Assembly (NCBI GenBank): GCA_013140495.1 | Contig: JABFSR010000014.1 | Location: 3,880 to 67,879 of the forward strand | Reading direction: 5' to 3' | DNA length: 64,000 nt | Source: Verrucomicrobiota bacterium | Lineage (GTDB): Bacteria; Verrucomicrobiota; Verrucomicrobiia; Limisphaerales; JADLHS01 | Part shown: in pieces, positions 16,932 through 41,129 of the stretch | Position numbering within the stretch: position 1 is the first letter of the stretch | Layout of the letters: the number at the start of each line of letters is the position of its first letter | Position numbers and translations under genes: made by a program | The notes under the pieces: model-generated | Seen by the model: the letters and a program-made list of their open reading frames with translations, nothing else | Databases searched by the model: none | Told to the model about the DNA's origin: nothing

Positions 16932-17085
16932 AGGCTCAAAGTGACAGAACAGGATTCGGGTTGCTTTCAAAATTTGTTGCTGAAGGATATTGAACAAAAT
17001 TCGCGGACGGCTTGCGGAGCGGGAAACAACTCTAAATCAGATTTGGAAATCATGGAACGCATCGTTGCACCAGAACAACCTTGCA

Positions 17086-17124
17086 GGAATGGACAACCCG
17101 CCGAACCACATGGATATTTGACGG
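17086..17124 (-). promoter_or_regulatory. Copy A of a conserved 39-bp bipartite direct-repeat element (candidate AraC-type operator), upstream of the GH95-symporter-galKT operon
   Basis: ggaatggacaacccgccgaaccacatggatatttgacgg. Half-sites atggacaac (17089) and atggatatt (17110) are exactly 21 bp apart. Near-identical to copies at 41091 and 38264. Lies 155-193 bp upstream of the ATG at 16931. Confidence 0.45.
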
Positions 17125-17422
17125 TTGGATTTAGAGTGCGGTTTAACATTACTGAATGGGTTCGATTTTAATCAAATGTCGCACGGGCGTCACCGCGTTC
17201 CGGCTGGTTTGACTTAGCGTCTTGGCTTTACGGACCAAACTCGCTTTGAGTTGATCCACCTAGTTTTTCTCCTCCGGGAGCAACGTGCTCCAAGTTGGCA
17301 AGTGGTGTAGCCTGGCTGCAATCCGCCGGCTCTGGCGACTGGCGACAATGGCACGACACTCCATAGCGCACAGATCCAGAGGAAGGATCGATGTAGCGGC
17401 AATTTGACATAGTATTTCATAG

Positions 17423-19486
17423 TTATTTATCCAGACGCAGGATGAATCCTCCACGACTGGGAATTGTGTGTTGCCATTCATTGGCGGGCTTCAGCGGTGA
17501 CGCAATGACTTCCATCTGCGCCTCTTTCCCTTCGGCAATCAGCACGCCCTTTCCAAACTTACGATAGCGTTTCAGGTCGAGCGTGACCGGCTGTGATTGA
17601 TTTGAACCGTTGATGCCAGCGATAAACCAGCTCGAACCCGTGCGTCGCGCAAACACCGCCAGGCGTCCCGGTTCGCCCAAAAGACAGTGCGTTTCATCCC
17701 AGCGCGCCGGGGCATCATGGAAAATCTTCAGCGCTTCCGGTGGTAATGATTCAAACATCTTCGCCTGGTCAGCGTAGTGTATGATGCCCGACGTGAAGAT
17801 GAGCGCCGTCGCCAGTTCATGCGCGGCAGTGGTGGTGCGCTGATATTTCTTCGGAGAGATCGCCAGCGGCGTGTAATCCATCGGCCCGACGACGTTGCGC
17901 GTGAACGGCAGCACCGTGTTCAGCTCCGCCGCCTTTTCCGAGTAACGCGGTTCGTAGAAATAACTCTCCGTGCCGAGCACCGCCTCCGCCGTCATGAAGT
18001 TCGGCCAGGTCCGATGCCAGCCACGCGGAATCGTGCAACCGTGTAGATTCACCAACAGCTTGCGCTCCGCCGCATCCGCAAACAACGCGTGCATCGCCAC
18101 GATGCTCTCCTGCCGGTCCGAGCACCAAAAATCCACCTTCACGCCGCAGATACCGGCGGCAACCATCTCGTCCAGTTTGCGGGCACGCTTCTTCGCATCG
18201 TAAAAATCCTGGGCGTGCAGCCACGCCAGCGGCGCGACGCCTTTCTCCTTCGCATGTGCCGCAAGTTGCTTCAACCCGGGCGACCACCAGCCCGCATCGA
18301 ACAGCGTGTATTCCCAACCCATCTTTGCAGCAAAGTCGGTGAATTGATTGAAGTGCTCGGCATTGAACGGTCCGTCGGGATACGACCACCATGCCCACGA
18401 CGCGCGCCCCGGCTTTATCCAAGACGTGTCTTTGATTTGCGCCGGCAGGGCGAGATCAGTGACCAAGGTTGAAGTCGCAATTTCTCCCGCGTTCGCTCCC
18501 AGCACGATCACGCGCCACGGCATTATCCATGGCAACGTGGAGCGCGGATTTGTCGTGAGATTGGTGGATTGCCCCTTGGTGTGCTCATCTGGCAGTGGAA
18601 ACGCGACGCGATACAACCCGCCAGTCGAATCCGACCCGAGATGACAAGCAGTGTAAGAACCATCCGTCCCCGACTCCGTCAGCAAAACCCAACTGTCCGC
18701 CCCCGGAACATTGAACAACGCGGGAAAACACCAGCCGAGGGGTTCACCCCGCGAACGCGGTGGCGCGTCACCCGGCGCGACGTGGAAATAGAAGTCTTCG
18801 TAAGCTGGCGTGTATGGTCCAGCCGCATGATACGGCTGCAACCAGCCACGCGCCTCCATTGGAAGCTGAAAGCCCGCCAACTCTGCCTGCACCATCTGGG
18901 CTTCTTTGGAGTCCCCCGTCAGCCGATACCGGAACGCCACGCCTTCATCGCTCGCAGCCAGATCTATCGTCAGCGTAGCGCTGTTCGTGTTGCTGAACTC
19001 CAGCGTGCGTTGGTGAAGCTGGCGATCCACGTGCGGCATCACACCCGCGAACAACTCGTATTTCTCCCGAAGCTGCTTAAGCTTGCCCGCCCGAGCACAC
19101 CTCAATCCGCTCTCAAAATTTTGCCCTTCGAGCGCCAACCCGAGCGGAGCGGACGGCAACACAACTTTGCCCGCGCGCGACACCTGATAGCTCAAGCGTC
19201 CTTCACTGCTCAACTGAACTGTGATTTCACATCTGCCGTTTGGCGAAGTCAGTGACCAACGATCAGCTTCCGCCTGAACCAGCGTGGGGAGCAAATAAAG
19301 CAGCGCAACAAATCCGCGCCAGCGTCTTGGACTGCGGCAGCCCTCTGCCGCTTTGGTGTCGCAGTGCTGGCGATGAAGAGCGGTAGAGGGCTGCCGCAGT
19401 CCAAAACCTGTCAGGGCGAATGAAAACCAAAGTCCTTTTTTCACGGGGCGAGTTCGACGACACAAGCTTCGAGTCCCTTCACGCAA
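17423..19486 (-). CDS. Glycoside hydrolase family 97 (second copy); start codon uncertain
   Basis: SPNGRCEITVQLSSEGRLSYQVSRAGKVVLPSAPLGLAL and IKDTSWIKPGRASWAWW parallel the first GH97. The signal-like segment RRWRGFVALLYLLPTLVQAEA has no nearby ATG/GTG/TTG. The only in-frame ATG (19486) lies upstream of a 25-bp inverted repeat and overlaps the preceding gene by 46 nt. Confidence 0.7.
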   Translation of the reverse strand: MREGTRSLCRRTRPVKKGLWFSFALTGFGLRQPSTALHRQHCDTKAAEGCRSPRRWRGFVALLYLLPTLVQAEADRWSLTSPNGRCEITVQLSSEGRLSYQVSRAGKVVLPSAPLGLALEGQNFESGLRCARAGKLKQLREKYELFAGVMPHVDRQLHQRTLEFSNTNSATLTIDLAASDEGVAFRYRLTGDSKEAQMVQAELAGFQLPMEARGWLQPYHAAGPYTPAYEDFYFHVAPGDAPPRSRGEPLGWCFPALFNVPGADSWVLLTESGTDGSYTACHLGSDSTGGLYRVAFPLPDEHTKGQSTNLTTNPRSTLPWIMPWRVIVLGANAGEIATSTLVTDLALPAQIKDTSWIKPGRASWAWWSYPDGPFNAEHFNQFTDFAAKMGWEYTLFDAGWWSPGLKQLAAHAKEKGVAPLAWLHAQDFYDAKKRARKLDEMVAAGICGVKVDFWCSDRQESIVAMHALFADAAERKLLVNLHGCTIPRGWHRTWPNFMTAEAVLGTESYFYEPRYSEKAAELNTVLPFTRNVVGPMDYTPLAISPKKYQRTTTAAHELATALIFTSGIIHYADQAKMFESLPPEALKIFHDAPARWDETHCLLGEPGRLAVFARRTGSSWFIAGINGSNQSQPVTLDLKRYRKFGKGVLIAEGKEAQMEVIASPLKPANEWQHTIPSRGGFILRLDK
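19327..19404. repeat. REP-like inverted repeat (25-bp arms, 28-nt loop)
   Basis: Left arm ttggactgcggcagccctctgccgc (19327-19351). The right arm gcggtagagggctgccgcagtccaa (19380-19404) is its reverse complement with 1 mismatch. Confidence 0.85.
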
Positions 19487-22023
19487 TTGGGAATGATTCC
19501 CTCGCGCATCAGTTCCTCACCTGTGAACGATTTGCCTTCTTGCGTCAATGCCGCGCGCCCCGGTGCGGGATTCAGTTCGCGCACGGTGTAGCGCTTCGTT
19601 ACATCAAGGCCCTGCGGGCGCACGGATTGCGCTGCGCCATCTTTCAATTGGAACATAAACAACGCCGCCTTACACTGGTCCGGGGAAACGTAGTTCAGCG
19701 CGCCGCGTTTGGCGTCGTGTGGTCGCTCTAAGCGATACAAATCACCGAGATGCACCACATCGCGGATGCGTTTGTAAGCGGCGATGGCCCCGGCACAGAT
19801 AGCTTTGTCTTCCGCCGACAGCTTCACGAGATCGAGGTCAATGCCGTAACGCGCGCTCATCGCCACACTGCACGCGAAGTGCATCGGGCGATGTCCCCAA
19901 TGTGTCACGTGACTCGCCATGCTGATGGCGGGGAAAAAGTAGGAGTAATCCCATTGCATCGGGATGCGCACGGCTGGGTCGGTGTTATCGCTTGGCCAGA
20001 ATTCATGGAAGTATTTCAGCGCGCCATAATCCACGCGCCCGCCGCCGCCCGAGCACAGCATCAATTCGATGTGCGGAAATTTCTTCGCTGTCTGGTCCAT
20101 TAAGTTGTACAGCGCATGTGTGTAATCAATCCACAGGTGCGACTGGCGCTCCGGTTTCAACCACGACGAACCCGGCTGCGTGAGGTAGCGATTGCAATCC
20201 CACTTCGCATACGCGATGCCCGGCACGCCAAGCACATTTTGAATAACCTGCCACTCGAACTTCTGCACCTCGGGACGCGTGAGATCGAGCACGAGTTGAT
20301 TGCGCTGCAATTCCAGCTCCCGTTTCGGCTGGCGGATGACCCAGTCGGGATGTTTCTCGAACAACTCGCTCTTGGGATTTACCATCTCCGGCTCGATCCA
20401 GATGCCGAATTGCAGACCGCGCCTGCTGGCTTCGGTGGCCAGCGGCGCGAGACCTTTCGGCAAACGCTTCCAGTTCGGCGACCAATCGCCGAGGCCAGCA
20501 TTGTCACTGAGGCGCGGATACTTGTTTGCGAACCAACCATCGTCCAACAGGAACAACTCTGTGCCGATCTCCTTCGCCGGATCGTAGAGGCTGACAATAC
20601 GATTGAAATCAAAGTCAAAGCCTGTTGCCTCCCAGTTGTTCAGCAACACCGTCCGCGGCTGAATGCCATCACGCAGCGCATACTGCCGCGCCCAGCGATG
20701 TAACTTGCGGCTCATGTCGCCGAGACCGTGATCACTCCACGCCCATATCATTGTTGGGGTGGAGAACTTCTCGCCGGACTTCAAGTGATACGCAGAAGCG
20801 AAAGGATTGATGCCGCACACCGCGCGCAATCCGGTGGCGAAATTGTCGAATGCAAACCGGAAACTCCCTGACCACGCGAGCGACCCCGCCAGCACGCGAC
20901 CGCTGTTTTCCTGTGGTGCACCATCGAGCGACAGCACGAACGAAGGATTGCGGAACTGATGCGCCCGCACGCCGATTTTGGAATCGAGAACTTTTGTCCC
21001 GGGATTCAGCGGCTCGACGAATGGTTGCATCTCCTTCGCCCAGTCGCCGAAGAAGTGCAGCAGACTCACATTGGTTGGCGCGAACAGCAGCGAACTCGAC
21101 GCCATCTGCTCCAACGTCGCCTCACCACGTTCGCGATGTTGAATCTCCGTCCATTGCTCGATGACATCCTGCTCGCGATACGTGCGGAAGCAGAGCGCGA
21201 CTTCAAACGGATAAGCCGCGTCGCGTAACTGGATACGGACCACTTCGCGGCCTTCCCCGTCCGGCGTGCGCGTCAGGCGGTCGAAAAGCAATGCGGTGGA
21301 CGTGTTGCCATCAGCGTGAACGACCTGCAACGCTGGTTCCCAGATGTAGCCATCGCCTGCTTGCGGATAGCCCTCATCGTTCCGCGTCAATTTGCCCGAG
21401 TCGCCGCCGATGGCGTGTTGCTGCAACCGTCCGTCATCACCCACCAGGAAACTCAGGGCAAAAGTCTTCGTTTGCAGGGCGATGGTTTCGTAAGGAGAAA
21501 GGGCAGCCGGTTTGGCCGCGCCATCCACCATGACAATCTGCGCGTCCGCCCAGTCCGCGTGGTCGTTGCTCCCGCCATCACCCGCTTCCGTCGCCCGCAA
21601 GGTCAGGACTTTCACGCCCGCCAGCGCGACGTCCACTTGCTTTGCCGGTTGCCCGGCTTTCATCACGCCGCTGCGCCAGAGTTCCTTGCTGTCGCCGCTG
21701 ACAATGAATTCCACACTGCCCGGCGCGCTGGCGCTGTCGTTTACGCCGACTTGGGCGGTGAACCGCTTCGCGTTCCCCCCAAGCTCAACGCGCAGCTTGC
21801 TGTTCGCGTGCGTACCGAGGCCGGTGGCAAACTTCCGGCCGGCGATGACCAATGGCCCGCCCCCGATGGCGTGGTCCGCCTTCGGCTCACTCCAGCCGCA
21901 GGTCATCAGTTTCAAATCCAACGAGCTGAGCGGGACGGATTCTGCCCACAGCGAACCCGCACTGCTCAACAACGCGAGCAGCACGCCACCTTTCAAACCG
22001 GAGAGTCTCATGGAGTCAAACAT
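19441..22023 (-). CDS. Alpha-galactosidase, GH36, with an N-terminal NPCBM carbohydrate-binding module
   Basis: NPCBM-like segment: LSSLDLKLMTCGWSEPKADHAIGGGPLVIAGRKFATGLGTHANSKLRVELGGNAKRFTAQVGVNDSA..GSVEFIV. GH36 core: LLNNWEATGFDFDFNRIV, FLLDDGWF, YAKWDCNR. Signal peptide MFDSMRLSGLKGGVLLALLSSAGSLWA. Confidence 0.85.
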   Translation of the reverse strand: MFDSMRLSGLKGGVLLALLSSAGSLWAESVPLSSLDLKLMTCGWSEPKADHAIGGGPLVIAGRKFATGLGTHANSKLRVELGGNAKRFTAQVGVNDSASAPGSVEFIVSGDSKELWRSGVMKAGQPAKQVDVALAGVKVLTLRATEAGDGGSNDHADWADAQIVMVDGAAKPAALSPYETIALQTKTFALSFLVGDDGRLQQHAIGGDSGKLTRNDEGYPQAGDGYIWEPALQVVHADGNTSTALLFDRLTRTPDGEGREVVRIQLRDAAYPFEVALCFRTYREQDVIEQWTEIQHRERGEATLEQMASSSLLFAPTNVSLLHFFGDWAKEMQPFVEPLNPGTKVLDSKIGVRAHQFRNPSFVLSLDGAPQENSGRVLAGSLAWSGSFRFAFDNFATGLRAVCGINPFASAYHLKSGEKFSTPTMIWAWSDHGLGDMSRKLHRWARQYALRDGIQPRTVLLNNWEATGFDFDFNRIVSLYDPAKEIGTELFLLDDGWFANKYPRLSDNAGLGDWSPNWKRLPKGLAPLATEASRRGLQFGIWIEPEMVNPKSELFEKHPDWVIRQPKRELELQRNQLVLDLTRPEVQKFEWQVIQNVLGVPGIAYAKWDCNRYLTQPGSSWLKPERQSHLWIDYTHALYNLMDQTAKKFPHIELMLCSGGGGRVDYGALKYFHEFWPSDNTDPAVRIPMQWDYSYFFPAISMASHVTHWGHRPMHFACSVAMSARYGIDLDLVKLSAEDKAICAGAIAAYKRIRDVVHLGDLYRLERPHDAKRGALNYVSPDQCKAALFMFQLKDGAAQSVRPQGLDVTKRYTVRELNPAPGRAALTQEGKSFTGEELMREGIIPNCVKGLEACVVELAP

Positions 22024-22107
22024 GCCAAAAAGAAAACGAATCTGTCGTGCAAAATTATTCAGCGAATAAATCTTAACAGCAAAAGCGCAGCTCTTGTGTC
22101 GTTCCCC

Positions 22108-22986
22108 TTATGCGCCAACCCGCAGACAAATCTGCCAGGTGACGGAATCCAACGCGGCCACCGTGCCGCAACACTGACGGGCGGCGGCCAGGGTCAGCGT
22201 ATCCGCAGCGCTGTTCGTCGGCTCCAGGGCGAAGTGTTCATGCCCGTGCCAGCCACCCCGCGTCAGCCACACGCCCAGCGTGTTGTTCTCGGCTGGCGTC
22301 CACTCGAAATCCAGGCGCTCGCCGGTGTTGACGTTGCGGAGGGTGGCGCATCCCTCCGTTACAGGCGTGGCGAAAATCTTGGCGCAATCGCCCTCGGGCG
22401 TTGCCGCGGCCAGATCATCCACCCACGTGTCGCCGTTCAGCAGGCTGCGGGTGGAGGGCGGCAGTTCCAGTTGATCGCCGGGGTGCAGGCGTAACAGCGG
22501 ATGCATGGCCCAGAGGAAATGCTCGTTGCTGGAACCATGGTTGCGCAGCCGATAGCCGAGATGGATTTCGTGCTCGCGCAATTCAATCGTGCGTTCGAGC
22601 GCGAAGGGCGAAGTTTTTAATACCGCGAAGGTTTTCAGTATCCCGTGTTCTTTGGCCGCGTCATCCACCTGCCACGGAATGCTCCAGACCTCGCCATGAT
22701 CCGGAAGCTGCCGGCCCTGCCAGACGCACGGGGCAATCGTGGGAAAACATTCATCCATGCCCACCAGCGGGCTGTCGGCAAAATCATCCCCCGGACGATT
22801 GCGAAACAACTTTAATCCCCCCGGGGGATGCCACATCCATTCGCGCCCGGTGCGCAGGTTTTTCAGCGAGATGATCTTGGCGCCGAGTTCCGGAACGATC
22901 ACGACCTCGACTTCTTGATTACCGAGCGCATACAGGTCGAATCCCTGTTCGTGCCGCACTTCGATGCTGTTGCTGATGGTGTTCAT
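22108..22986 (-). CDS. Aldose-1-epimerase (galactose mutarotase)-like fold protein
   Basis: Trimmed to MNTISNSIEVRHEQGFDLYALGN (ATG 22986, 1 nt after the upstream stop). LGAKIISLKNLRTGREWMW...MDECFPTIAPC...LPDHGEVWSIPW resembles mutarotase-like proteins. Call is from memory plus context. Confidence 0.5.
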   Translation of the reverse strand: MNTISNSIEVRHEQGFDLYALGNQEVEVVIVPELGAKIISLKNLRTGREWMWHPPGGLKLFRNRPGDDFADSPLVGMDECFPTIAPCVWQGRQLPDHGEVWSIPWQVDDAAKEHGILKTFAVLKTSPFALERTIELREHEIHLGYRLRNHGSSNEHFLWAMHPLLRLHPGDQLELPPSTRSLLNGDTWVDDLAAATPEGDCAKIFATPVTEGCATLRNVNTGERLDFEWTPAENNTLGVWLTRGGWHGHEHFALEPTNSAADTLTLAAARQCCGTVAALDSVTWQICLRVGA

Positions 22987-22987
22987 T

Positions 22988-26425
<3,438 letters not shown>

Positions 26426-27847
26426 TTAATCCACCAACTCGCGTTCAATTTGCTCCAGCGATTTGCCCTTGGTTTCGGGCAGCTTGAAAAACACAAACAC
26501 AAATCCCGCGACACAAATCACCGCGTAGAGCCAGAATGTTCCCGCCGAGCCGAGCTTGGCGTTCAAAATTGGAAACGTGTAGGTTAGCAGGAAACATGCG
26601 ATCCAGAGCGCGGACACCGCCACGGACATTGCCGCGCCACGAATGCGATTCGGGAAAATTTCCGAGATGACGACCCACGCGACCGGCGCGAGAGACATCG
26701 CGTAACAAGCGATTGCCGCCAGCACCAACAGCAGCATCGGCAGTCCTTGGACGCCGCCTGCGTAGCAACAACCCATCGCAATATAGATGACGGCCAGCGC
26801 CGCCGAGCCGAACAACATCAGCGGTCGCCGCCCACCGCGATCCACCACGCCGAGTGCGACAAAGGTGAATGCGAGATTCACCGAGCCAGTCCACGCGATG
26901 TTTTTCAGCACGGAAGAAATGTCGTAGCCAGCGGCGCGGAAAATTTCCTCGGAGTAGTTGAAGATGACATTGATGCCGCACCATTGCTGGAACACGGCGA
27001 GAACGATTCCGAGGATGAGAACTTTCCGCAACTTAGGATCAAACAAGTCAGTGAAGCTCCCGCGCTGAGTTTGTTCGCTGGCCAAGGTGGATTCAATGTC
27101 AGCGACGGCGGCGTTCGCGTAACTTGCGCCGCCGATTTTCGTCAAGATGGCGCGGGCGCGATCAGGTTTGCCGTTCTTCGCGAGCCAGCGCGGGCTTTCC
27201 GGCACGAGAAACATGCCGATGAAAAACAGAAACGCTGGCGCGGCGGTGAGACCGAACATCCAGCGCCAGCCTTGCTGACCGAACCAAGAAGTGCGGATGA
27301 ATTCGTCGGTCGCGCCTTGTGGCAGATTGCGGACGAGATACCAGTTGATGTATTGCGCGAGCAAGATGCCGACGACGATGGTGAGTTGATTGATCGAAAC
27401 CAGCTTCCCGCGAATCTGCGCCGGGGCAACCTCGGCGATATACATCGGCGACAAATTGGACGCGAGGCCGATGGCGACGCCGCCGAAAATGCGCCACGCG
27501 ATGAAGATGGTGAAGTTGTTCGCCAACGCGTTCCCGATGGAAGTCACCGCGAAGATCAAAGCGGCGACGATGAGCAGTCGCTTACGACCAAACTTGTCGC
27601 TGAGCGCGCCTGCGATCAGTGCGCCGACGAGACACCCGATGAGCGCGCAACTATTCGCCCAGCCGATTTGCGCTTCAGTGGTCAGTTCAAAATATCTTTG
27701 GAAGAACGGCTTCGCACCACCGATGACGACCCAGTCCCACCCAAACAAGAGGCCGCCCATCGCCGCGACGCTGGAGATGAGCCAGACGTAGCCGAGGTTG
27801 TAGTTGGCTTTGAGATTCGATGTTTCAGTTTGCGTGGCAGTAATCAT
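26426..27847 (-). CDS. MFS sugar porter (sugar:H+ symporter family)
   Basis: GGLLFGWDWVVIGGAKPFF, GRKRLLI and VPESPRWLAKNGK are sugar-porter signatures. 12 predicted TMs, 473 aa. Confidence 0.85.
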   Translation of the reverse strand: MITATQTETSNLKANYNLGYVWLISSVAAMGGLLFGWDWVVIGGAKPFFQRYFELTTEAQIGWANSCALIGCLVGALIAGALSDKFGRKRLLIVAALIFAVTSIGNALANNFTIFIAWRIFGGVAIGLASNLSPMYIAEVAPAQIRGKLVSINQLTIVVGILLAQYINWYLVRNLPQGATDEFIRTSWFGQQGWRWMFGLTAAPAFLFFIGMFLVPESPRWLAKNGKPDRARAILTKIGGASYANAAVADIESTLASEQTQRGSFTDLFDPKLRKVLILGIVLAVFQQWCGINVIFNYSEEIFRAAGYDISSVLKNIAWTGSVNLAFTFVALGVVDRGGRRPLMLFGSAALAVIYIAMGCCYAGGVQGLPMLLLVLAAIACYAMSLAPVAWVVISEIFPNRIRGAAMSVAVSALWIACFLLTYTFPILNAKLGSAGTFWLYAVICVAGFVFVFFKLPETKGKSLEQIERELVD

Positions 27848-27869
27848 GTCGTGCGATGAAATGTTTTGG

Positions 27870-31787: not shown

Positions 31788-31847
31788 GCATGAACGGGAT
31801 TTGAATCGCGCAAGAAACTGATCGTGAATTTCAGCATGAAATCGGAA

Positions 31848-32675
31848 TCATGGCGGACGAACCGTGGGAGTCTTCCAGTTCTGATGCCAATAAAGACTCC
31901 ACAATGATTCTAGTTTGGTTACCTCTACATGGCCATCAGTAAATCCAATAACAATCGAGCCAGGCAATGGTTGTCCCAGCGGAACAGAACGCGGTGCGAC
32001 ACCTGCAGCTTTTGATCCATGCCGGGCAATGGTTATGCGTTGCATGCCCTCCTTTGAAGGATCTCCGGTGTAAAGGTTGTGCGGATTTCCGCCCGGCGGG
32101 TCGGTTTCAAGCGGGTCTAGATTGATCCAGGTGCTGTCCATAAAAACCGGTGTCAGCGTTGGATTTTGAAGAACATTCGCGTTCTTTATCAGCCAATCGG
32201 GATGAGCGGCCCCGTTGCCGAGAACCAGATTGGAGTCTGAAGATAACCACTTGTTGAACCCGTAGCTCGAAGAATAAACAGGAGTGGAAAGCGTCCAGTG
32301 CCACGCCTGATCGGCAGTTCCAGCCGGGTTTACCGCTCCGCCCGGATTTCCCTTGTTAGGCGCAACAGGACAAATCAATACGTTGGTGGCTTTTCCGTAA
32401 TAGGCGAGCATAGCCCCCATCCAATCCCCTTGGCTCGACATAGGATTCGGGTCGAGCGGCCCGACCCAAACATGCATCTCATCAACATACATTTGACTGG
32501 CCAGACTGATCTGCTTGAGGTTGTTCACGCAGCTGATTTGTTGCGCCTTTATTTTGGCCCTGGACAAGGCCGGCAGCAGCATTGCTGCGAGAATGGCGAT
32601 GATCGCGATGACCACCAACAACTCAATGAGGGTGAATGCCCGTGTGCCAATACCTGACTGCCGCTTCAATTTCAT
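31848..32675 (-). CDS. Prepilin-type N-terminal cleavage/methylation domain protein (DUF1559-like)
   Basis: [49 protein letters not shown]-terminal region IGFTDGHVE. Confidence 0.8.
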
Positions 32676-32755
32676 CTGATCCTTTTATATTCATCAACTC
32701 GAACCACCCTGCCGCCAGCATTACCGCCGGCGGCAGGCAAACCACCGTCGTAACG

Positions 32756-35700
32756 TCACGGCACCCGCAGGAGATAAAATCTCCGTGGGTCTGCGGCGTT
32801 GATTGCGTTGGTGAAACCAAAGGCTCCGGACGGGCTGAACTGGTTCGTTGCAAGCGCGGTCCAGTTGATCACCGACAATGCGACGTTTGTGCTTGTCAGG
32901 ACGTGGTAAGTTCCATTTGGCGGCCCACCTGCGCCTTGGAGAACGATGTTGCCGGAGACAAGCGTGATGCTGGAAATGGTCGGTTGAGCAGAGCTGGCGA
33001 CCACAGCGATGGTGCCGTTTGCCAAGAGGCTGCTCGTGTCCCATTGCAATCCCGCACCAGGAGTCGCTGGCGTGATGCTGCTGAACGTGCCGCTATAACT
33101 CGACGCGTTGAACAACTTGAAGCTGTTGCCCGCCGCCAGGGTGCCCGCAAGATTGGCCAGGCTCAACGTGCCGCCATAAGTAATGCTGGCACAGGTGATC
33201 TGGTCACGCGTTCCAGCAGTCTGGTTCAAATCCATCAGGGTTGTGCCAGACAAAACCACGCTGTTGGTCACCGTCAATGTTCCAATCGTTCCAGCACCGC
33301 CGGGCACAACGGCTGCGCCGGAGCCAACCGACAAGTTTCCGTTGACGATGCCGCTGCCTTGCAAGGTCTGACCGGCTCCCAGCGTCAGCGTCTGATCGGT
33401 GCGGCCGCTCACATTCAGGATTGCGCTCGCCGCCAGGCTGATGTTGGTGCTGCCCGAAATCGAGCCATTGCCGATCAACGCGAGCACCATGCCGGAACGG
33501 ATGTCCGTGACGCCCTGGTAGGTATTGGCCGCAGTGAAGACCAGCGGGTTGCCGCCGTATTGGTTCAAGTAGAAACCGCCCGCGCCACTGATGACATTAC
33601 TGAAGGTAACCGGGGCGTTACCAATTTGGAAATTGGCCAACCCGTTCAGAATGACCGTTCCGGAGATGGCGACGCCGCTACCGCTGCCGCCGTCCACACC
33701 GTATAAATACAGTCCTGAATTGTCTTCCAGCACAAACGAGGTTTTCAGCCGGTAATCGCCCGCGCCGCCGCTGGGTTGGTATTGCAAAGCGGCAGTGGGC
33801 AGGATATGGACGACTTTCGCGTATCCGTTGTCGCCGGCAGTCGTGTCGCCGTGCTGGATGCTAAAAAGAATATTGGAGTGCAGCGTGAGGACATTGGTGG
33901 GATTGCCCAGGCTGACGCCCAAAGCCTGGATGCGCATGGTCTGCTGGCTGCCAGCACTTGTGTAAAGGTCAATATTTCCAAGGTTCGTATCAATGCCGAT
34001 GCTTTTCCATTCGGAATAACCTCCGACACTGACGGTCAGGTTATAATTGCTGCCACCGCTGCTCAATGTGGTGCCAACACCCGGATAGCCCCAATCGAAC
34101 CGGCCGGATCCACTGATCGTCGTGTTGCCGGTCAACTTGATGTTTTGGCCGAGACCGAGCGTGGCGCTGTCGCTGTAAAGCGGGTTGCCGGTGAATTGTA
34201 TGGCCCCCTGGCCGTTGGCACCGGTGCCGGACACGACAATCGGCTTGTTGCCGAAGCCGGCGTCGCCAGCCGGGTACCCCCCCGACAAATTCACCGCCAG
34301 CGTGGCACCGTTGCTGATGGTCAATGTGCCATTGGGTGCTCCCGCCGCCGAGGTGAGGCCATTGAGTTTCACCGTGCCGGAGGCGATCGTGAAGTTGCCG
34401 GTGAAATCATTGACGTTGCTTATGGTCAGGGTGCTGCTGCCGAGTTTGACGATGCTCGCGGTGCCGCTGATTTTGCCCGCGCCGCTGATGGAGTAGTTCG
34501 CGCTTGAATTATTTGTCACCACGCTCGGTGCAACCACCTGCCCGGTGCCAATCACCAGGTTCGTCGCCGGATTCGGTGCGGTGAGGATTCTGTCGTCCAA
34601 CAGCACGATATCCGCAGTGTAGAACTGGTCTTCAACATGCGTGGTCAAGTTGGTCCAATTGAAGGAACTTTGAACATCCCATTGACCGTTGTTGGCACCG
34701 TTGTTCCAAGCCAGAGTATTGGCCACGCCCGTAACGATCAGCTTCACCTGGTTAGCCGTGCTGGTGTCAATGGTGAAACCGTAGCGGGACTGTGATACTG
34801 TCGAAGCCGTGCCAAATGATCCGTTGAGATTGCCGGTATAGGTAAACAAGGTGTAGGTCCCTGTCGCCAGCGTCCCGGTGAGCGGGTTGATGGTGATGTT
34901 GTTGCCATTCACGTTGAGGTCACCGGTGACGGCCACGAGGTCGTTGGTCCCACCGCCAATGCCAAGAGTGGGCGCCAGATCCATCGTCACAGCGGCGCCG
35001 CCTTGCAACGTCAAACCGCCTTGCGCATGGAAAGTTCCAGCCGCACTGGCTGCTCCGGGAAGAAGCGCTCCGCCGACGTCAACCAACCCATTGACCGTGC
35101 CGCCGCCGGCGACCGTGCTTCCTGATTGACTGGTGACTGTGCCGCCGATGGTGCCATTCACTACGACCGAACCCGTGAAGAGCGACACATTGCCAGAGTA
35201 GGATGGGCTGTTACCCGCAAGCACCAGTGTGCCGCTGCCGCCATTCACATAGGCCGTGCCACTCCCGCTCAAAACATTGCTGACCGTCAAGGAGGTGCCG
35301 CCGTTAATGTTGAAAGAACAAAAGCCGGTTCCCAATGTCATTGCCCCGTTCATGATATGGTCTCCGCCACCAACGCTAATTGTCGCGCCGGCCTGAAAAT
35401 CCACCGCCTTGTTCATATTAACATTCGGGTTCCAAAAAACCAGTTGCGCACCCGGACTCAAGGTCAAGGTAGAACTTGGATTGCCGAAGGTGGTTGATCC
35501 CTTCACACCCCAGGTGCCGGACAACAAATTAATGTTTGCAAGCGCAGGATCCACGGTGACGCTGCTCCACTCGAAATACGTCGCACTATTCAAAGTCAAA
35601 TTGTAGGCATTGCCTCCCGTCCCAAGGGTGGCGTTAATCAAATCCCAGCGATTGGGGACGCCAAAGGTGGTATTGCCTGCCAGCGTCACGCTGGACGCGT

Positions 35701-38074
35701 AACCATAAACAGCGCCGCCGTTGTCGGTGATCGCCCCGTTGCCGTCTACGCCAGCCCCGGAAACCACGACAGCTTTCGATCCATAATTGCCATTGATATC
35801 CAGCGTGGATCCATTGGCCACGATGACGCTGCCACTGCCGCCACCCAATGCGGATGAGCTGCCCACTATCAACGTGCTGCTGTTCGTGACAACCGCGTTT
35901 CCTGTGAAGGTATTTGCGCCGCTCAGAGTAAGCGTGCTGCCACCCTTATGTATTACAGAACCGGTTCCCGAAATGTTGTTGTTCACCGTCAAGGCGTCTG
36001 AACGAGCATAAACCAGATTCGCATTGTCGGTGATGGAACCGGACGGCAGGTTGCCTGCAGCATCGTTATTGCCGACCTGCAAGGTGCCGCCACTGATGGT
36101 CACGCCACCGGAAAAATTATTATTTCCAGCGTTATCCAGGATCAGCGTTCCGATGCCTTGTTTTATCAGACCGCTGGAACCACTGATGGAACCGCTGCCG
36201 TTAAACGTGTAGGCCGGCGAGGTGTTGCTGACGGTGATACCGGCTGGCGAGAGTGTGGTTGTGAGGTTGACGGTATTATTGTTCGCCCCGTTTAAGAATT
36301 GCACAAAAGCCCCATCGGAATAAATAGCCGGGCCGCCGGAGGTCCAGTTCGCCGTGCTGGTATCCCAGTTGCCGCTGCTTGAACCTGTCCAGGTCAAAGT
36401 GCTGGAGCCGGCGGTCAGCACCAAATCAATGGTGGCGTTGGCGGAATTATTAACGAGGTGCCCTGCATAAAGCGGCGGCAGCGTGCCAAGCCCGAAATTG
36501 TAGCCGGCACCACTAATGCCGCCGGAGTACTTGACCAGCGGAATCTGCACCGGATAACTGGGAAACGCAGGCGCGGAGGTGAGGTTGATGATGTTGGTTG
36601 TGCCGCCCGTTGTGAGGCTTGTGACCACAATATTGTTGGATGATGAAGTGGAAGCCAACGCAAGGCTGAACGCCGAATTGGTGGCGGTGATCGTGCTGAG
36701 GGGAGCCGCGACTGTTCCGGCTTTGCCCGAAACCGTCAGCGCACCGTCTTTGAGTTTGATCGCACTCGACCCGCCTCCAGCAACAACGGTATTGGCCACC
36801 ACTGCGCCTCCATTGACGTTGATGATGCCAGCGCTTCCCGGCGTCAGTGTGCCGGTAACGGCGGCCAAGGTCAGCGTGTTGTTGACGGTCAACGTCGCGT
36901 TGGTGTCGATATTAACAATTCCCACGCCCATGCCGCCGCTGCTGACTTGCTGATTGCCGATGGTAGCGTTGTTCGCATTGACGCTGCCGTCGTTAAAGTT
37001 CAGGGTGCCCTGCGAATTGGCCCCGGCGCTGCCGCCCTGGCCCAGTTGCATTGTGCCCGCCATTACCGTGATGTTGCCGCCGGTAAAATCGCAAAGGGCG
37101 GTGCCGGCAACTTGCGAATTGCCGTTGGCGTTGCCGATATAAAAATTAACAATGCGCCCATCCCCGCCATTGCCGCCCAAATAGGCCACCAGCGCATCAG
37201 GTCCGCCCACGAAGGCCGGGTTAAAGGCTATCATGGCCCCGGCTGACCCGGTGCCCGGGCCGCCCACAACCAGGTTGCCGGTGCCGGTCAGGATATAGTT
37301 GTAGATTCCCAGATAGACCCCGCACGTCATTGAATTGCTGCCGAGCGTGTTGCAGATTTGAAAATCATTCCCCAAGGAAATCACGTTGGTTTTGGCCAGA
37401 TACAAGGTGCCATTTTGGTTTGGCATGGTGCTGTTTTCGTCCTGGTTTCCGCTAGCCACGCGGATGAAATTGCCGCTGCCCGCGCCGCTGCTGGCGTTGA
37501 AGGTATCCAGACCCGAAAGGTCCAGCGTGACATTATGGTTGTCGCCCGGCGTTGGCGATCCTTGGCCCACCCAAAGGTTGGCGCTCGTTCCGGGCATGTT
37601 TAGCGTTCCGCCGCTGCCCGTGATGGTGATCGTTTCCACTGCGTTGGCCGGAGCGGGGCTGCTTCCGCTCAACTGGTCGGCCCCCACGGTCAGGTAGCCG
37701 TGATTGCCCACCCCGACCGTCAAGGTAACCCCCGGATTAATCAGCGTCGTGTAATTGCCATTGGTCGGGACAAAGTCCAGTTCCCAAATCGGCATCTGGG
37801 CGACTCCGGTAGTGCTGTCCAGCACATTGTTCACGGAAAAATTCGCGCTGTTGTTGGCACCAATTCCCCTGAATTGAACCTGGTTGTAATAAGTTTGCTG
37901 CGGAGCCGTCCAGTTGGCGGCATCGGTCCAGTTAGTGGTCGCACTTACTCCCGGCACGCCCTGCCATTGCTCAGTATCTGCATAGCTGGACCACGCGGCA
38001 AACGTCGCCACGCTCAAGGCGATGCCGAATTTTTGTATTTCACTCAGTTTTGTAATTTTGAATTTTATTTTCAT
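32756..38074 (-). CDS. Giant (1772 aa) autotransporter-associated beta-strand repeat protein, secreted
   Basis: Signal-like N-terminus KFGIALSVATFAAWSSYA. Many PATR-type units (LIKQGIGTLILDNAGNNNFSGGVTISGGTLQVGNN; VIHKGGSTLTLSGANTFTGNAVVTNSSTLIVG). C-terminus GTYHVLTSTNVALSVINW...PRRFYLLRVP. Confidence 0.8.
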   Translation of the reverse strand: MKIKFKITKLSEIQKFGIALSVATFAAWSSYADTEQWQGVPGVSATTNWTDAANWTAPQQTYYNQVQFRGIGANNSANFSVNNVLDSTTGVAQMPIWELDFVPTNGNYTTLINPGVTLTVGVGNHGYLTVGADQLSGSSPAPANAVETITITGSGGTLNMPGTSANLWVGQGSPTPGDNHNVTLDLSGLDTFNASSGAGSGNFIRVASGNQDENSTMPNQNGTLYLAKTNVISLGNDFQICNTLGSNSMTCGVYLGIYNYILTGTGNLVVGGPGTGSAGAMIAFNPAFVGGPDALVAYLGGNGGDGRIVNFYIGNANGNSQVAGTALCDFTGGNITVMAGTMQLGQGGSAGANSQGTLNFNDGSVNANNATIGNQQVSSGGMGVGIVNIDTNATLTVNNTLTLAAVTGTLTPGSAGIINVNGGAVVANTVVAGGGSSAIKLKDGALTVSGKAGTVAAPLSTITATNSAFSLALASTSSSNNIVVTSLTTGGTTNIINLTSAPAFPSYPVQIPLVKYSGGISGAGYNFGLGTLPPLYAGHLVNNSANATIDLVLTAGSSTLTWTGSSSGNWDTSTANWTSGGPAIYSDGAFVQFLNGANNNTVNLTTTLSPAGITVSNTSPAYTFNGSGSISGSSGLIKQGIGTLILDNAGNNNFSGGVTISGGTLQVGNNDAAGNLPSGSITDNANLVYARSDALTVNNNISGTGSVIHKGGSTLTLSGANTFTGNAVVTNSSTLIVGSSSALGGGSGSVIVANGSTLDINGNYGSKAVVVSGAGVDGNGAITDNGGAVYGYASSVTLAGNTTFGVPNRWDLINATLGTGGNAYNLTLNSATYFEWSSVTVDPALANINLLSGTWGVKGSTTFGNPSSTLTLSPGAQLVFWNPNVNMNKAVDFQAGATISVGGGDHIMNGAMTLGTGFCSFNINGGTSLTVSNVLSGSGTAYVNGGSGTLVLAGNSPSYSGNVSLFTGSVVVNGTIGGTVTSQSGSTVAGGGTVNGLVDVGGALLPGAASAAGTFHAQGGLTLQGGAAVTMDLAPTLGIGGGTNDLVAVTGDLNVNGNNITINPLTGTLATGTYTLFTYTGNLNGSFGTASTVSQSRYGFTIDTSTANQVKLIVTGVANTLAWNNGANNGQWDVQSSFNWTNLTTHVEDQFYTADIVLLDDRILTAPNPATNLVIGTGQVVAPSVVTNNSSANYSISGAGKISGTASIVKLGSSTLTISNVNDFTGNFTIASGTVKLNGLTSAAGAPNGTLTISNGATLAVNLSGGYPAGDAGFGNKPIVVSGTGANGQGAIQFTGNPLYSDSATLGLGQNIKLTGNTTISGSGRFDWGYPGVGTTLSSGGSNYNLTVSVGGYSEWKSIGIDTNLGNIDLYTSAGSQQTMRIQALGVSLGNPTNVLTLHSNILFSIQHGDTTAGDNGYAKVVHILPTAALQYQPSGGAGDYRLKTSFVLEDNSGLYLYGVDGGSGSGVAISGTVILNGLANFQIGNAPVTFSNVISGAGGFYLNQYGGNPLVFTAANTYQGVTDIRSGMVLALIGNGSISGSTNISLAASAILNVSGRTDQTLTLGAGQTLQGSGIVNGNLSVGSGAAVVPGGAGTIGTLTVTNSVVLSGTTLMDLNQTAGTRDQITCASITYGGTLSLANLAGTLAAGNSFKLFNASSYSGTFSSITPATPGAGLQWDTSSLLANGTIAVVASSAQPTISSITLVSGNIVLQGAGGPPNGTYHVLTSTNVALSVINWTALATNQFSPSGAFGFTNAINAADPRRFYLLRVP

Positions 38075-38263
38075 GCTTTACTGGGGGTTGGGGGCTGGTT
38101 CATCCACAAATCATGCGGCGACCCCCGCGATACGGGGGTCAGTCGGGGTCAGTCATTGTCGAAAGCGGTAACGCTTTTGCGCCAGGACATCATCAGACGG
38201 CAGTTCATAATCCGTTGGCTGTGTTGGCTCATGCAACCATCGTTGCATATAAGCGGGAGGCGC

Positions 38264-38302
38264 GGAATGGATTACTAAACGAAGAGCATGGACAATTGGC
38301 TG
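38264..38302 (-). promoter_or_regulatory. Copy C of the 39-bp bipartite direct-repeat element, upstream of the giant-protein operon
   Basis: ggaatggattactaaacgaagagcatggacaattggctg. Half-sites at 38267 and 38288 (21-bp phasing). Lies 190-228 bp upstream of the ATG at 38074. Confidence 0.45.
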
Positions 38303-38344
38303 GTCGCTGCCAGGGAAGATTGGGTGACGCCTGTGCGACTTAGC

Positions 38345-38512
38345 TCACTGGCTGTAGCGCCGCCGGTGCTCCGAAGGCGAATGGTTGTGCATCTTTCGGA
38401 AGGCGCGCGAAAAGTAAAACTGGTCGGAAAAGCCCAGTTGATCGCTGATCTGTTTGATGGACAATTCAGTGGCGTTGAGCAACTGCACCGCGCGTTGCAT
38501 CCGCAGATGGTT
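38345..38512 (-). pseudogene. AraC-family HTH C-terminal remnant (55 codons + stop, no N-terminal part)
   Basis: Manual translation gives NHLRMQRAVQLLNATELSIKQISDQLGFSDQFYFSRAFRKMHNHSPSEHRRRYSQ*. By hand count about 88% nucleotide identity to 39247-39411, the 3' end of the intact AraC gene. Homology stops at 38512, 18 nt from the GH2-fragment stop. Confidence 0.7.
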
Positions 38513-38530
38513 CTGACCGAACGCGAAACA

Positions 38531-39226
38531 TCATGCTGGTGAATACGTATCGAAAAGACTGCGAACTTGCAGTTCACCGAGGAAAACTTCCCGGCTTATC
38601 GGTTCTTTAGGCTGAACCAGAACCGTTTGCGGCACATCCGGCATGAGGTGGATAAAGTTGTCGGCATATTTTGCATCCGCATTCTTCAGCCCCAGCCAAA
38701 CCCACAGCGCGGGCGTCGCAGACTGAATGGTGACCAGAAACCCGTCGCCCAATTCTTTGACTGAAGACGCCAGTTTGGGATCGCTCAATTTCAATTCTTT
38801 CGGCAAGGCCAGCAACACTAGGTTTTCGGAAACGGTTTTGCCGTCCACTTCCAGCTTCAGCCACGTCAACAGGCCGTTCGCACCCTGGTTCTTGACTTCC
38901 GTTTGCAGATCCAGCGTTTTCACCTTCTCGCTTTTGCGGGCCGGAAGCGGCACAGACATGGAATCGTGGCGCAAAGTTCTGCCGGCCAGATCTGTCACGT
39001 TCCAACTCAGTTTGCCGCGATGCAATTCCAGTTCGTCACTGGTGACAAAAAGGTCAATCGTTCCGTCCTTGATGTTTTCCAGCCCGGAAACGAGAAGTGG
39101 TGAGTAGAATGTTCGCGCCATATAATGCAGCGCTTTCCAACGGCCAAAGTAATCCACCGACGACCAGTTCATGCCCGGCCAGATGTCATTGTATTGCCAG
39201 TAAACACAACCCATGGATTTGGGCAT
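38531..39226 (-). pseudogene. GH2 beta-mannosidase C-terminal fragment (catalytic N-terminal roughly 600 aa missing)
   Basis: MGCVYWQYNDIWPGMNWSSVDYFGRWKALHYMARTFYSP matches the conserved GALYWQLNDCWP..WSSIDYYGRWKALHY block near the end of the beta-mannosidase TIM barrel. The C-terminal Ig-like domains follow. Homology begins right at the AraC stop (39244). Confidence 0.7.
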
Positions 39227-39243
39227 GGTCTGTGCCGAAAATT

Positions 39244-40131
39244 CTATGCCCCGTAACGCCGCCGGTGTTCCGACGGTGAATGGTTGTGCATCTTACTGAA
39301 GGCGCGGGAGAAATAAAACTGATCGGAGAAACCCAGTTGATCGCTGATCTGCTTGATGGACAATTCGGTGGTGTTAAGCAATTGCACCGCGCGCTGCATC
39401 CGCAGGTGATTCAGATAACTCAGCGGCGCGTAACCCGTCACGCGGCGGAACGAGGTCGTGTAGTGCGAGCGAGAGAGATTCGCAAGCGCAGCCAGCGTTG
39501 CCACCGCCAGGGGTTCGCGCAGATGGCCTTTCATAAACTCGATACTCTTTGCCATCCGCTCGCGCACACTGGTTTCACCATAACCGAATTCTTCCTTGTG
39601 CCGCAGGATCAATCCCATCAAGTGCGTCAAGGAGTGCGCTGCATAGGTTAGATGGGTCGAAGTAAAACCGTGTTCCAATCCTTCCAAAACTTCCTCGAAC
39701 AGGGAGAACAACTGCACGTCGCCGCCGAGCGGCACGACTGGTTTCTCCGGCGAAACTTCAAGCTTTTCCAGATAGACGGGCACATTTGATCCGATGGCGT
39801 GAAACCAATGAATCGTCCAAGGTGAATTCTGGGCCGCGCCATAGACGTGCGGGGTGCCGGCATTGATGACCAGCAGTTGGTTTTTGGTGATCTCTTGTTT
39901 GCGGCCCGCGATCTCGCACCAGCCGTTTCCCTCGGCGCAATAGATGAAAATGACTTCCGGGCACCCTCGCTCGCGGACGCAGGTGTGTCCTTTGGCTTTC
40001 GGATAATATCCCGCATCGGTCGGCAGCAAATGTTGAAGCAATGGAGATTTGAGCGCAGTCGTCAGGATGGGCCGGGGCACCACAACCAGGCGTTGCCCAA
40101 CAAATCCTTCATGCTTCTCGCGCCACTTCAT
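39244..40131 (-). CDS. AraC-family transcriptional regulator (cupin-like sensor + HTH)
   Basis: C-terminus LSRSHYTTSFRRVTGYAPLSYLNHLRMQRAVQLLNTTELSIKQISDQLGFSDQFYFSRAFSKMHNHSPSEHRRRY. N-terminal cupin-like region VINAGTPHVYGA. Confidence 0.85.
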   Translation of the reverse strand: MKWREKHEGFVGQRLVVVPRPILTTALKSPLLQHLLPTDAGYYPKAKGHTCVRERGCPEVIFIYCAEGNGWCEIAGRKQEITKNQLLVINAGTPHVYGAAQNSPWTIHWFHAIGSNVPVYLEKLEVSPEKPVVPLGGDVQLFSLFEEVLEGLEHGFTSTHLTYAAHSLTHLMGLILRHKEEFGYGETSVRERMAKSIEFMKGHLREPLAVATLAALANLSRSHYTTSFRRVTGYAPLSYLNHLRMQRAVQLLNTTELSIKQISDQLGFSDQFYFSRAFSKMHNHSPSEHRRRYGA

Positions 40132-40229
40132 AAACGGTGAATGTTTTCAAAAGCCACCTTACTCAATTGCTGCAGCATCGCAATCATTTCATCGAAGGCA
40201 AGTGTCTGGCTGATCCGGTTACGGGTGGA

Positions 40230-40260
40230 TAAAAAAAAGCCGCCACCTGAGGTGGCGGCT
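40230..40260 (-). terminator. Rho-independent terminator downstream of the PEP-CTERM gene
   Basis: A 10-bp perfect stem agccgccacc (40238-40247) / ggtggcggct (40251-40260) with a 3-nt loop. On the minus strand a run of T follows (A-run 40231-40238 on the + strand). Confidence 0.8.
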
Positions 40261-40280
40261 TTTCCTGTTAAATCAAACCC

Positions 40281-40985
40281 TTAACTTTTCCGATTCCGTG
40301 CAATTCCAAGCACCATGGACATTCCAATCCCCAACAGAGCCAAAGTTGATGGTTCGGGGACCACATTATAACCCATGTTAGCAGCCGGATAGATCGCGTC
40401 TGATCCTCCTGCTTGGTTCGGTGGAGCTCCATCTCCAATATTTCCATATCGGCCTGCGCGGGAAAATTCGTATCCGCTGTCCAAATTTGCATACTGCCCA
40501 CTGAATGAGACTTGCGCACCGCCAGTAATCAAATCCCCCCACGTATCCACATTATCCGTTTGCGCACCGATAACATACCAGTTGTTGTAAGTCATGCCCA
40601 CGGTTGAAGGTAATTGCACCCACCGGAAACCATTCACCAAGGGCGCGGACGTTCCGGCCGGCACCGTCACCGAGGCAAGCAGTGTGTTACCGGCAGAATT
40701 ATCCCAAAGCGACACCACATGGCTGTTTGCCAGACCATCTCCACCGTTGTCATAATAACCCAGATAATTTACCTGCGGGTAGTAATTATAGGAGGTAAGA
40801 AAAACGCCTCCCACAACCCCCACATGACCATTTTGCGACAGTGTGGAGAGATCAACATTGGGGTTGAACAGCATGCTGCCATCAACCGTTTGTGCATGAG
40901 TGGCGGGCAATGCTGCAAGACAGACTGCAACTGCAGCGACAACTGATTTGGATTTCGTTTTCATTTTTTTATTGGTTGTTACCAT
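40281..40985 (-). CDS. PEP-CTERM sorting-domain protein
   Basis: Signal KSKSVVAAVAVCLAALPATHAQ. C-terminus VVPEPSTLALLGIGMSMVLGIARNRKS. Confidence 0.75.
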   Translation of the reverse strand: MVTTNKKMKTKSKSVVAAVAVCLAALPATHAQTVDGSMLFNPNVDLSTLSQNGHVGVVGGVFLTSYNYYPQVNYLGYYDNGGDGLANSHVVSLWDNSAGNTLLASVTVPAGTSAPLVNGFRWVQLPSTVGMTYNNWYVIGAQTDNVDTWGDLITGGAQVSFSGQYANLDSGYEFSRAGRYGNIGDGAPPNQAGGSDAIYPAANMGYNVVPEPSTLALLGIGMSMVLGIARNRKS

Positions 40986-41090
40986 TCTCTGAGTTTTTTA
41001 TCTCGTGACGCAATAAGGTGCAGATGCCTTGCGCAATCTTAACTTTAACTTGTTGGTCATGGTGAAACCTTAACACAGCACCTGTTTATT

Positions 41091-41129
41091 GGAATGGACA
41101 ACTCACCGAACCCTATGGACAATTGGCCG
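41091..41129 (-). promoter_or_regulatory. Copy B of the 39-bp bipartite direct-repeat element, upstream of the PEP-CTERM gene
   Basis: ggaatggacaactcaccgaaccctatggacaattggccg. Half-sites at 41094 and 41115 (21-bp phasing). Lies 106-144 bp upstream of the ATG at 40985. Followed by tgtgcgactt (41143-41152), which also occurs after copy C (38332-38341). Confidence 0.45.

Follow-up and report, generated by a model that had tools for sequence, protein, structure and literature searches.

The locus and its three 39-bp sites

In this study, we report the analysis of a 39-bp bipartite element that occurs three times at a locus with a gene for an AraC-family regulator in a Verrucomicrobiota bacterium. 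The window, that is, the whole stretch of DNA that was analysed, comprises 64,000 nucleotides of assembly GCA_013140495.1 (contig JABFSR010000014.1, positions 3,880 to 67,879 of the forward strand), and coordinates are counted from its first letter. Site A (17086..17124, minus strand; CCGTCAAATATCCATGTGGTTCGGCGGGTTGTCCATTCC in gene direction) lies upstream of a GH95 gene, site B (41091..41129, minus strand; CGGCCAATTGTCCATAGGGTTCGGTGAGTTGTCCATTCC) upstream of a gene for a PEP-CTERM/DUF4082 surface protein, and site C (38264..38302, minus strand; CAGCCAATTGTCCATGCTCTTCGTTTAGTAATCCATTCC) upstream of a 20-kb gene string that runs from a giant protein to GH97. The regulator gene (39244..40131, minus strand) encodes a protein of 295 aa with an AraC_binding/cupin N-terminal domain and a double helix-turn-helix (HTH), which is the presumed binder of sites A to C.

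The three sites have 25 of 39 columns in common, sites A and B being identical at 31 of 39 positions. In all three, the TCCAT/ATGGA cores are exactly 21 bp apart. The original prediction, made from the letters of the window alone, had placed the 39-mers at 17086, 41091 and 38264 with two half-sites phased by 21 bp, and both sequences and coordinates were exactly right, as was the phasing in every copy. Other details of that prediction had to be adjusted. The half-sites had been described as 9-mers of the form ATGGAyAWy, which does not fit the first half-site of copy C (ATGGATTAC, with a misfit at position 7) and falls short of their full extent, conservation spanning half-sites of ~17 bp plus a predicted downstream -10. 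Start codons were measured at ~106-190 bp from the sites, which upholds the lower end of the proposed range of about 105-230 bp and not its upper end.

The pattern of invariant columns, GGAATGGANNACNNNNCGAANNNNATGGANANTTGNCNG, matched sites A, B and C alone in the window with up to three mismatches allowed, and had no match in 100 shuffles. The whole assembly (5.57 Mb, 284 contigs) was then scanned with a position weight matrix (PWM) built from the three sites; above 12 bits it returned only sites A, B and C, at 57-61 bits. With an 11-site PWM these scored 50-57 bits and the next genomic match 9.7 bits. Since the genome-wide scans give only these three sites, the 39-bp element is locus-specific and is not a dispersed repeat. 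A miniature inverted-repeat transposable element (MITE) or repetitive extragenic palindrome (REP) would be present in many scattered copies; there are three, all in promoters of one locus, and the MITE/REP reading thus fails the genome scan that had been proposed as a check. The window gave no Rfam match at gathering thresholds that would indicate a structured RNA such as a riboswitch or leader, and literature searches found no prior description of the 39-bp motif.

The regulator was assigned by Pfam matches to HTH_18 (1.4e-21), HTH_AraC (3.1e-17) and AraC_binding (9.3e-15). Its best NCBIfam model is that of AraC itself (NF007860, an equivalog model), matched over near full length at 88.4 bits against a cut-off of 208 bits. 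Because the score is far below the cut-off, the protein is an AraC relative belonging to a separate subfamily and not an AraC orthologue.

In the order read on the minus strand, the central part of the locus consists of site B, the PEP-CTERM gene, a hairpin, the AraC gene, a GH2 fragment, an AraC 3' fragment, site C and the long gene string. The PEP-CTERM/DUF4082 gene (40281..40985, minus strand; Pfam) is the first after site B. The GC-rich, terminator-like hairpin (40242-40259) between it and the AraC gene has T-runs on both strands and could be a bidirectional intrinsic terminator, uncoupling AraC from promoter B. Downstream of site C, the string (17423..38074, all minus strand) comprises genes for the giant PATR protein (32756-38074), which is first after the site, a pseudopilin-like protein (31848-32675), an alpha-galactosidase-PATR protein (27870-31787), a major facilitator superfamily (MFS) sugar transporter (26426-27847), a DUF5107-tetratricopeptide repeat (TPR) protein (22988-26425), an aldose-epimerase-like protein (22108-23034), a GH36 alpha-galactosidase (19441-22023) and GH97 (17423-19486). 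The genes are tightly spaced on one strand, and we infer that they form an operon.

GH95 (14514..16934, minus strand) is the first gene after site A. Genes for an SSS symporter, galK and galT follow it past a 286-bp gap without a site. The original prediction had placed GH95 and symporter-galK-galT in one operon; given this gap, their co-transcription is not supported. A further element had been suspected at 14404, upstream of the symporter. It was rejected, TCCAT/ATGGA being absent from the whole 286-bp gap.

Half-site anatomy and predicted promoters

The anatomy of the element was derived from 128 unique sites. In gene direction their consensus reads ac-cGGtCAAttgTCCATGc followed by c.cgtt..aatGTCCATTCC, and the second half, when shifted by 21 bp, is a degenerate copy of the first; the element therefore consists of two direct-repeat half-sites of ~17 bp. 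The distal half-site, cGGtCAAttgTCCATGc (~17 bp), is strongly conserved and contains a GGtCAA sub-box (positions 2-7) and, about one turn of the helix further on, a TCCAT sub-box (positions 11-15). The proximal half-site (also ~17 bp) is a weaker, degenerate copy that ends GTCCATTCC / aatGTCCATTCC. TCCAT is invariant or nearly so in both. In site A, the distal half-site lies at ~17108-17124 and the proximal one at ~17086-17103, on the minus strand.

No information was found at positions -24 to -2 upstream of the element in the 128 sites, and a conserved in-phase third half-site was rejected. A sequence that recurs downstream of sites B and C, TGTGCGACTT, had also been listed among their shared features, but it does not belong to the element: B and C have it at unequal distances from the site, the genome contains it 14 times, and only 4 of 125 orthologous upstream regions have its 7-mer core. 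Given these copies and the lack of enrichment at orthologous sites, TGTGCGACTT was rejected as a third box.

Downstream of the element, outside the PWM, four positions at +17/+18, +21 and +25 are conserved, with T56 in 83, G57 in 96, A60 in 113 and T64 in 110 of the 128 sites and no information at their neighbours. The resulting pattern, TGn-nAnnnT, stands at a fixed 19 bp downstream of the element and played no part in site finding. It is predicted to be an extended -10, including the two most conserved -10 positions, and its register holds in distant homologues too (e.g. TAGAAT, TAGTAT). In the window, all on the minus strand, the predicted extended -10 of promoter A is TGcAACGAT (17061..17069, hexamer 17061-17066, predicted start ~17054), that of promoter C is likewise TGcAACGAT (38239..38247, hexamer 38239-38244, predicted start ~38232), and that of promoter B is TGtTAAGGT (41067..41075, hexamer 41067-41072, predicted start ~41060), 1 bp nearer its site than the other two. 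Assuming a 17-bp spacer, the -35 hexamer would be TTCCnn, a poor match. With the extended -10 placed 19 bp downstream, the element would span ~-70 to -32, and its proximal half-site would overlap the predicted -35 by 4 bp.

The conserved extended -10 also bears on the possibility that the sites are promoters of the opposite strand. A consensus scan calls TGGACA-17-GACAAT at sites A and B with 9 of 12 matches, as for a sigma-70-type promoter driving antisense or divergent transcription, and in distant homologues that direction points into the regulator gene. In most loci, however, such a promoter would run antisense into the AraC 3' end with no gene to express, and it would leave without a role both the conserved GGAA upstream of its '-35' and the TTGRCCG downstream of its '-10'. 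With an extended -10 independently conserved in gene direction, we regard an opposite-strand promoter as very improbable.

Promoters A and C were found to be alike at 19 of 20 aligned nucleotides (one gap) around the -10 and start (17054-17069 and 38232-38247), and the match, TGCAACGATG(C)GTTsCATGA, scores 28 against a shuffle maximum of 23. The operator of site A is closer to that of B (31/39), although the -10 region of promoter A matches C. Capture of promoter B upstream of GH95 was considered and rejected, as the flanks of A and B have no significant similarity.

Conservation of the element with the AraC orthologue

Within the same genus, an orthologue of the regulator is present in 5 of 24 genomes, that of the window and four others in which it is 78-91% identical. 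In these four, 2-3 sites lie beside the orthologue, upstream of the PEP-CTERM gene and the giant-protein/alpha-galactosidase operon; the remaining 19 genomes have neither regulator nor clustered sites. A further 142 loci were fetched from public genomes and metagenomes. A locus was counted as positive with at least one site of at least 20 bits, orthologues being full-length and at least 66% identical. All 42 genome loci with such an orthologue carry a site, as do 72 of 80 metagenome loci; in four of the eight loci that lack one, the sequence stops at most ~120 bp from the gene. In most loci the site typically lies 25-100 bp past the AraC stop codon, in the same orientation, and in orthologue loci the TCCAT cores are always 21 bp apart. 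A PWM-free regular expression (regex), TCCAT-N16-TCCAT, matched 47 of 48 loci with a homologue at least 43% identical. The footprinting in relatives that had been proposed as a check thus came out in favour of the element, with more than 100 loci carrying it at orthologous promoters with invariant spacing.

The same linkage was seen in an even sample of 151 genomes at the order level, in which orthologues were defined by at least 74% identity. The strict pattern is present in all 12 genomes with an orthologue, beside regulon genes, and in 11 of these on the AraC contig. The reversed pattern, used as a control, matched none of the 151 genomes. Twelve of the 133 homologue-free genomes have a pattern match, scoring -14 to 23.5 bits on the full PWM, with no AraC or regulon gene within ~4 kb and no -10 register; on these grounds the matches were rejected as sites, and a full site is found in 0 of 133. 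Presence of the element thus tracks the AraC orthologue across the 151 genomes.

This restriction to genomes with the orthologue bears directly on whether another transcription factor binds the element, the AraC gene being merely a conserved neighbour. In favour of another factor, one order genome (G134) has the AraC gene on one contig and its two sites elsewhere. Against it, the site stays beside the AraC gene through changes of gene order (past the stop codon, before PEP-CTERM, or divergent from the start codon), and the 21-bp direct repeat with its TCCAT core is a hallmark of AraC. Binding by another factor is therefore quite improbable.

Among more distant homologues (43-50% identity), the site is found ahead of the regulator gene and divergent from it, the distance from its distal end to the start codon being ~20-150 bp, and ~34 bp in several loci. 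In the five such loci with an identified downstream open reading frame (ORF), it points into a DUF5107-TPR gene, and DUF5107 may be a core target of the regulator family. In L055-L061 (e.g. L058:2929-2967), the regulator is 45-50% identical and the DUF5107-TPR protein still 70-79% identical to that of the window, and the two genes are divergent, with the operator variant AGGAAAATTnTCCAT-N16-TCCATGnn between them. In a survey of the first gene downstream of the sites, the giant PATR protein was found 31 times, PEP-CTERM 23, the MFS transporter 20, alpha-galactosidase 14, the pseudopilin-like protein 7 and DUF5107 6 times; 51 more cases matched no window protein, and 5 sites were without an ORF. 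A site upstream of the PEP-CTERM gene is found in G011, G016, G017, G023 and ~20 further loci.

Conservation of the regulon of copy A was not supported. In the fetched regions of G011 and G017, site A is absent upstream of GH95, where the three-site PWM gave no site above 5 bits, and the GH97-GH95 gap of G011 is 83 bp. Site A is apparently lineage-specific.

Site C has a history of its own. Between it and the intact AraC gene lie the 3' fragment of a GH2 beta-mannosidase gene (38531..39226, minus strand; 231 aa, Ig-fold domains only) and a duplicated AraC 3' fragment (38347..38511, minus strand) of 55 codons, with 93% aa identity to residues 240-294 and a stop codon 45 bp before the site. The GH2 fragment thus sits between the intact AraC gene and that gene's own duplicated 3' end, as a mosaic scar (38347-39226). 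Relatives have the site directly past the AraC stop codon; therefore the insertion with duplication occurred in the lineage of the window. The odd position of site C is explained by insertion of the GH2 fragment between the site C junction and the intact gene, so that site C keeps the ancestral junction of AraC stop, ~45 bp and site, beside the duplicated AraC 3' end.

A scar of this kind next to copy C, together with the identity of A and B at 31 of 39 positions and the likeness of A and C at 19 of 20 nucleotides (one gap) around the -10, might suggest a dispersed repeat or a functionless relic of local duplication. That reading is refuted by the genome-wide scan and by footprinting, and we give it next to no probability: the element has three copies only in 5.57 Mb, the surrounding intergenic DNA is without significant similarity, and across more than 100 loci the spacer and flanks drift while the positions of the element stay conserved.

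Several further observations were made on individual loci. G011 has a weaker third site (L013:1285-1323; 19.6 bits; GAAATGGAG...ATGGACAATCC) with a good TGcTATCGT -10, just upstream of DUF5107-TPR; the start codon follows ~48 nt after the site, leaving a very short leader. In G023 and G017 (L018:4013-5851; L009/L019), a protein of ~610 aa without a Pfam match follows the AraC-proximal site and stands where the giant PATR protein and the pseudopilin otherwise lie. Twelve metagenome-assembled genome (MAG) records with the verrucomicrobial locus (L026, L028, L031, L039, L043, L044, L050, L052, L053, L060, L067, L073) have titles that name Bifidobacteriaceae, Bifidobacterium, Pseudomonadales, Sulfopaludibacter, Binatia, Acidoferrum, Dongiaceae or Limnocylindrales, probably owing to mis-binning or mislabelling.

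Proposed mechanism and relation to known AraC-family systems

Taken as a whole, the results indicate that each 39-bp element very probably serves as an operator at which the adjacent AraC-family regulator binds as a dimer, in the predicted geometry of a class II activator. The AraC/XylS operator architecture proposed originally is supported, as the two-turn direct repeat, the TCCAT core and the predicted -35 overlap are all AraC-like. According to the mechanism we propose, an inducer-bound dimer of the regulator would occupy both half-sites and recruit RNA polymerase to three -35-deficient, extended -10 promoters. These would switch on the PEP-CTERM/DUF4082 gene, the ~20-kb string from the giant protein to GH97 and, in the window genome only, GH95. 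The conserved HTH2 would read the TCCAT box, and the more divergent HTH1 would read the GGnCAA box, roughly one turn of the helix further upstream. As the regulon includes enzymes of the GH36, GH27-like, GH97 and GH95 types together with a pair of sugar transporters, an epimerase-like protein, galK and galT, the probable inducer is D-galactose or an alpha-galactoside.

The same regulator might instead bind and mainly repress, occluding the -35 region until sugar releases it. The overlap of the element with the predicted -35 would suit such a role, and so would the site of distant homologues, which lies ~34 bp upstream of the regulator's own start codon, in divergent orientation, a position from which the bound protein would probably act as a repressor of its own gene. 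A repressing state is also described for E. coli AraC (PMC11983282). However, the present promoters lack a recognisable -35 (TTCCnn) and would rely on an extended -10, as promoters that depend on an activator typically do; AraC and RhaS activate from tandem direct repeats that end at ~-32; and no second operator for looping was found in a half-site scan of the contig. Repression as the main function is thus considered unlikely, and both a repressor-only role and another binding factor fit geometry and co-occurrence less well than activation by the adjacent regulator.

Some points weigh against an operator for an AraC-type activator. Within the 39 bp, conservation was measured on sites collected by PWM and is in part circular; this does not apply to the TCCAT-N16-TCCAT regex test or to the flanking positions. 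No site is seen in four metagenome loci in which enough sequence follows the AraC gene. TCCAT-N16-TCCAT was found in 0 of 9 Bacteroidota loci (33-36% identity) within 3 kb, yet the homologues there retain the HTH2 helix, and for this reason the site cannot be predicted from the helix alone. Both the -10 and the -35 overlap that follows from it are predicted. Autoregulation of AraC from site B is uncertain because the terminator-like hairpin follows the PEP-CTERM gene. Finally, a half-site PWM run over the contig gave no isolated half-site of at least 12 bits near the locus, and no loop partner like araO2 was found; consequently the full AraC 'light switch' is not claimable here.

One sequence within the AraC gene was considered separately. 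The distal-box core AATTGTCCAT is also present in the HTH2 coding region (39356-39365 and 38457-38466, coding for ELSIK), 169 bp from the distal box of site C. It was rejected as an araO2-type looping half-site, the Glu being kept in 14% and the Ser in 65% of orthologues and the codons not being conserved; the original caveat that ATGGACAATT within the AraC coding sequence simply encodes protein was correct.

Verrucomicrobiota are an abundant, little-cultured phylum of soil and peat, and to our knowledge very few transcription-factor binding sites are known from them. For the present system, the regulator, operator consensus, predicted promoter geometry and targets are all defined, and its conservation covers more than 100 environmental loci. 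Through a single sensor, alpha-galactoside catabolism would be linked with giant surface and secreted proteins and with a PEP-CTERM protein. As a form of control this is textbook; what is new is a well-supported further example of a classic bacterial switch. The TCCAT core of E. coli AraC, its 21-bp tandem geometry and the predicted 4-bp -35 overlap are kept in a distant phylum, and knowledge of AraC would therefore be easier to transfer to uncultured organisms.

A more far-reaching proposal, which we put forward only tentatively and hold to be possible though rather doubtful, is that the AraC relative serves as the single sugar-sensing master switch of a system like a polysaccharide utilisation locus (PUL) in soil Verrucomicrobia of the Pedosphaera/Limisphaerales type. 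It would co-induce surface proteins (PEP-CTERM/DUF4082, the giant PATR adhesin-like protein and the pseudopilin) and alpha-galactoside catabolism, and its TCCAT-reading HTH2 would be an ancient portable module common to E. coli AraC. If this were true, AraC-like regulons would be predictable across phyla from sequence alone, and the regulator-operator pair would be usable as an orthogonal galactoside-inducible expression switch.

Among known members of the family, MelR of the E. coli melibiose system and BgaR of Clostridium perfringens share with the present system the AraC-family control of galactoside hydrolase and transporter genes. MelR differs in that it matches the regulator in the HTH region only (27 bits), and its site architecture is not known to be a single tandem pair. 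BgaR is the only solved structure that matches the N-terminal domain of the regulator, weakly (E 0.011); assignment of a ligand from structure was rejected, as this match is only weak. The XylS repeats at Pm, TGCA-N6-GGNTA, are 21 bp apart. At rhaBAD, according to PMC11983282, RhaS binds tandem half-sites of which the promoter-proximal one partly overlaps the -35. The element of the window is like the sites of these two class II activators in its tandem half-sites, and like that of RhaS in that the promoter-proximal copy is predicted to lie partly on the -35; it differs from both in half-site sequence. RhaS further differs in that its similarity to the regulator is confined to the HTH region (52.7 bits) and in that it acts with CRP.

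The closest likeness was found with E. coli AraC at pBAD. The spacing of araI1 and araI2 in E. coli is 21 bp, as in the element of the window. In PMC11983282, araI1 and araI2 are described as direct repeats of TAGCxxxTxxxxCCxxA, with a TCCATA box common to araI1 and araO2; araI1 is bound far more strongly than araI2, araI2 and the -35 share 4 bp, and HTH1 makes contact with the AGC box and two adjacent bases through its residues 208 and 212. The regulator of the window has the same build, an AraC_binding cupin domain with a double HTH, and its element likewise consists of ~17-bp half-sites in a 21-bp direct repeat with a TCCAT(A) core, strong distally and weaker proximally, with 4 bp of the proximal half-site predicted to fall within a poor -35. 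In its HTH2 recognition helix the regulator is almost the same as E. coli AraC, and the motif of this helix, D-x-x-Y-F-S-R-x-F, is conserved in all aligned homologues including AraC. In HTH1, the protein alignment shows that S208 is kept and that H212 of E. coli is replaced by T. Because the HTH2 helix is conserved while H212 of HTH1 is T, HTH2 would read TCCAT, and HTH1 would read a differing upstream box, GGnCAA here and AGC in E. coli.

The systems differ in further respects. The upstream box of the window is GGnCAA in place of (T)AGC, in keeping with the change of H212 to T in HTH1; the regulon comprises alpha-galactoside/galactose catabolism and surface proteins and not arabinose utilisation; and in close orthologues the regulator gene is co-directional with its target and upstream of it, not divergent. 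The element of the window would thus work like AraC at araI, but as part of a separate subfamily with a different regulon.

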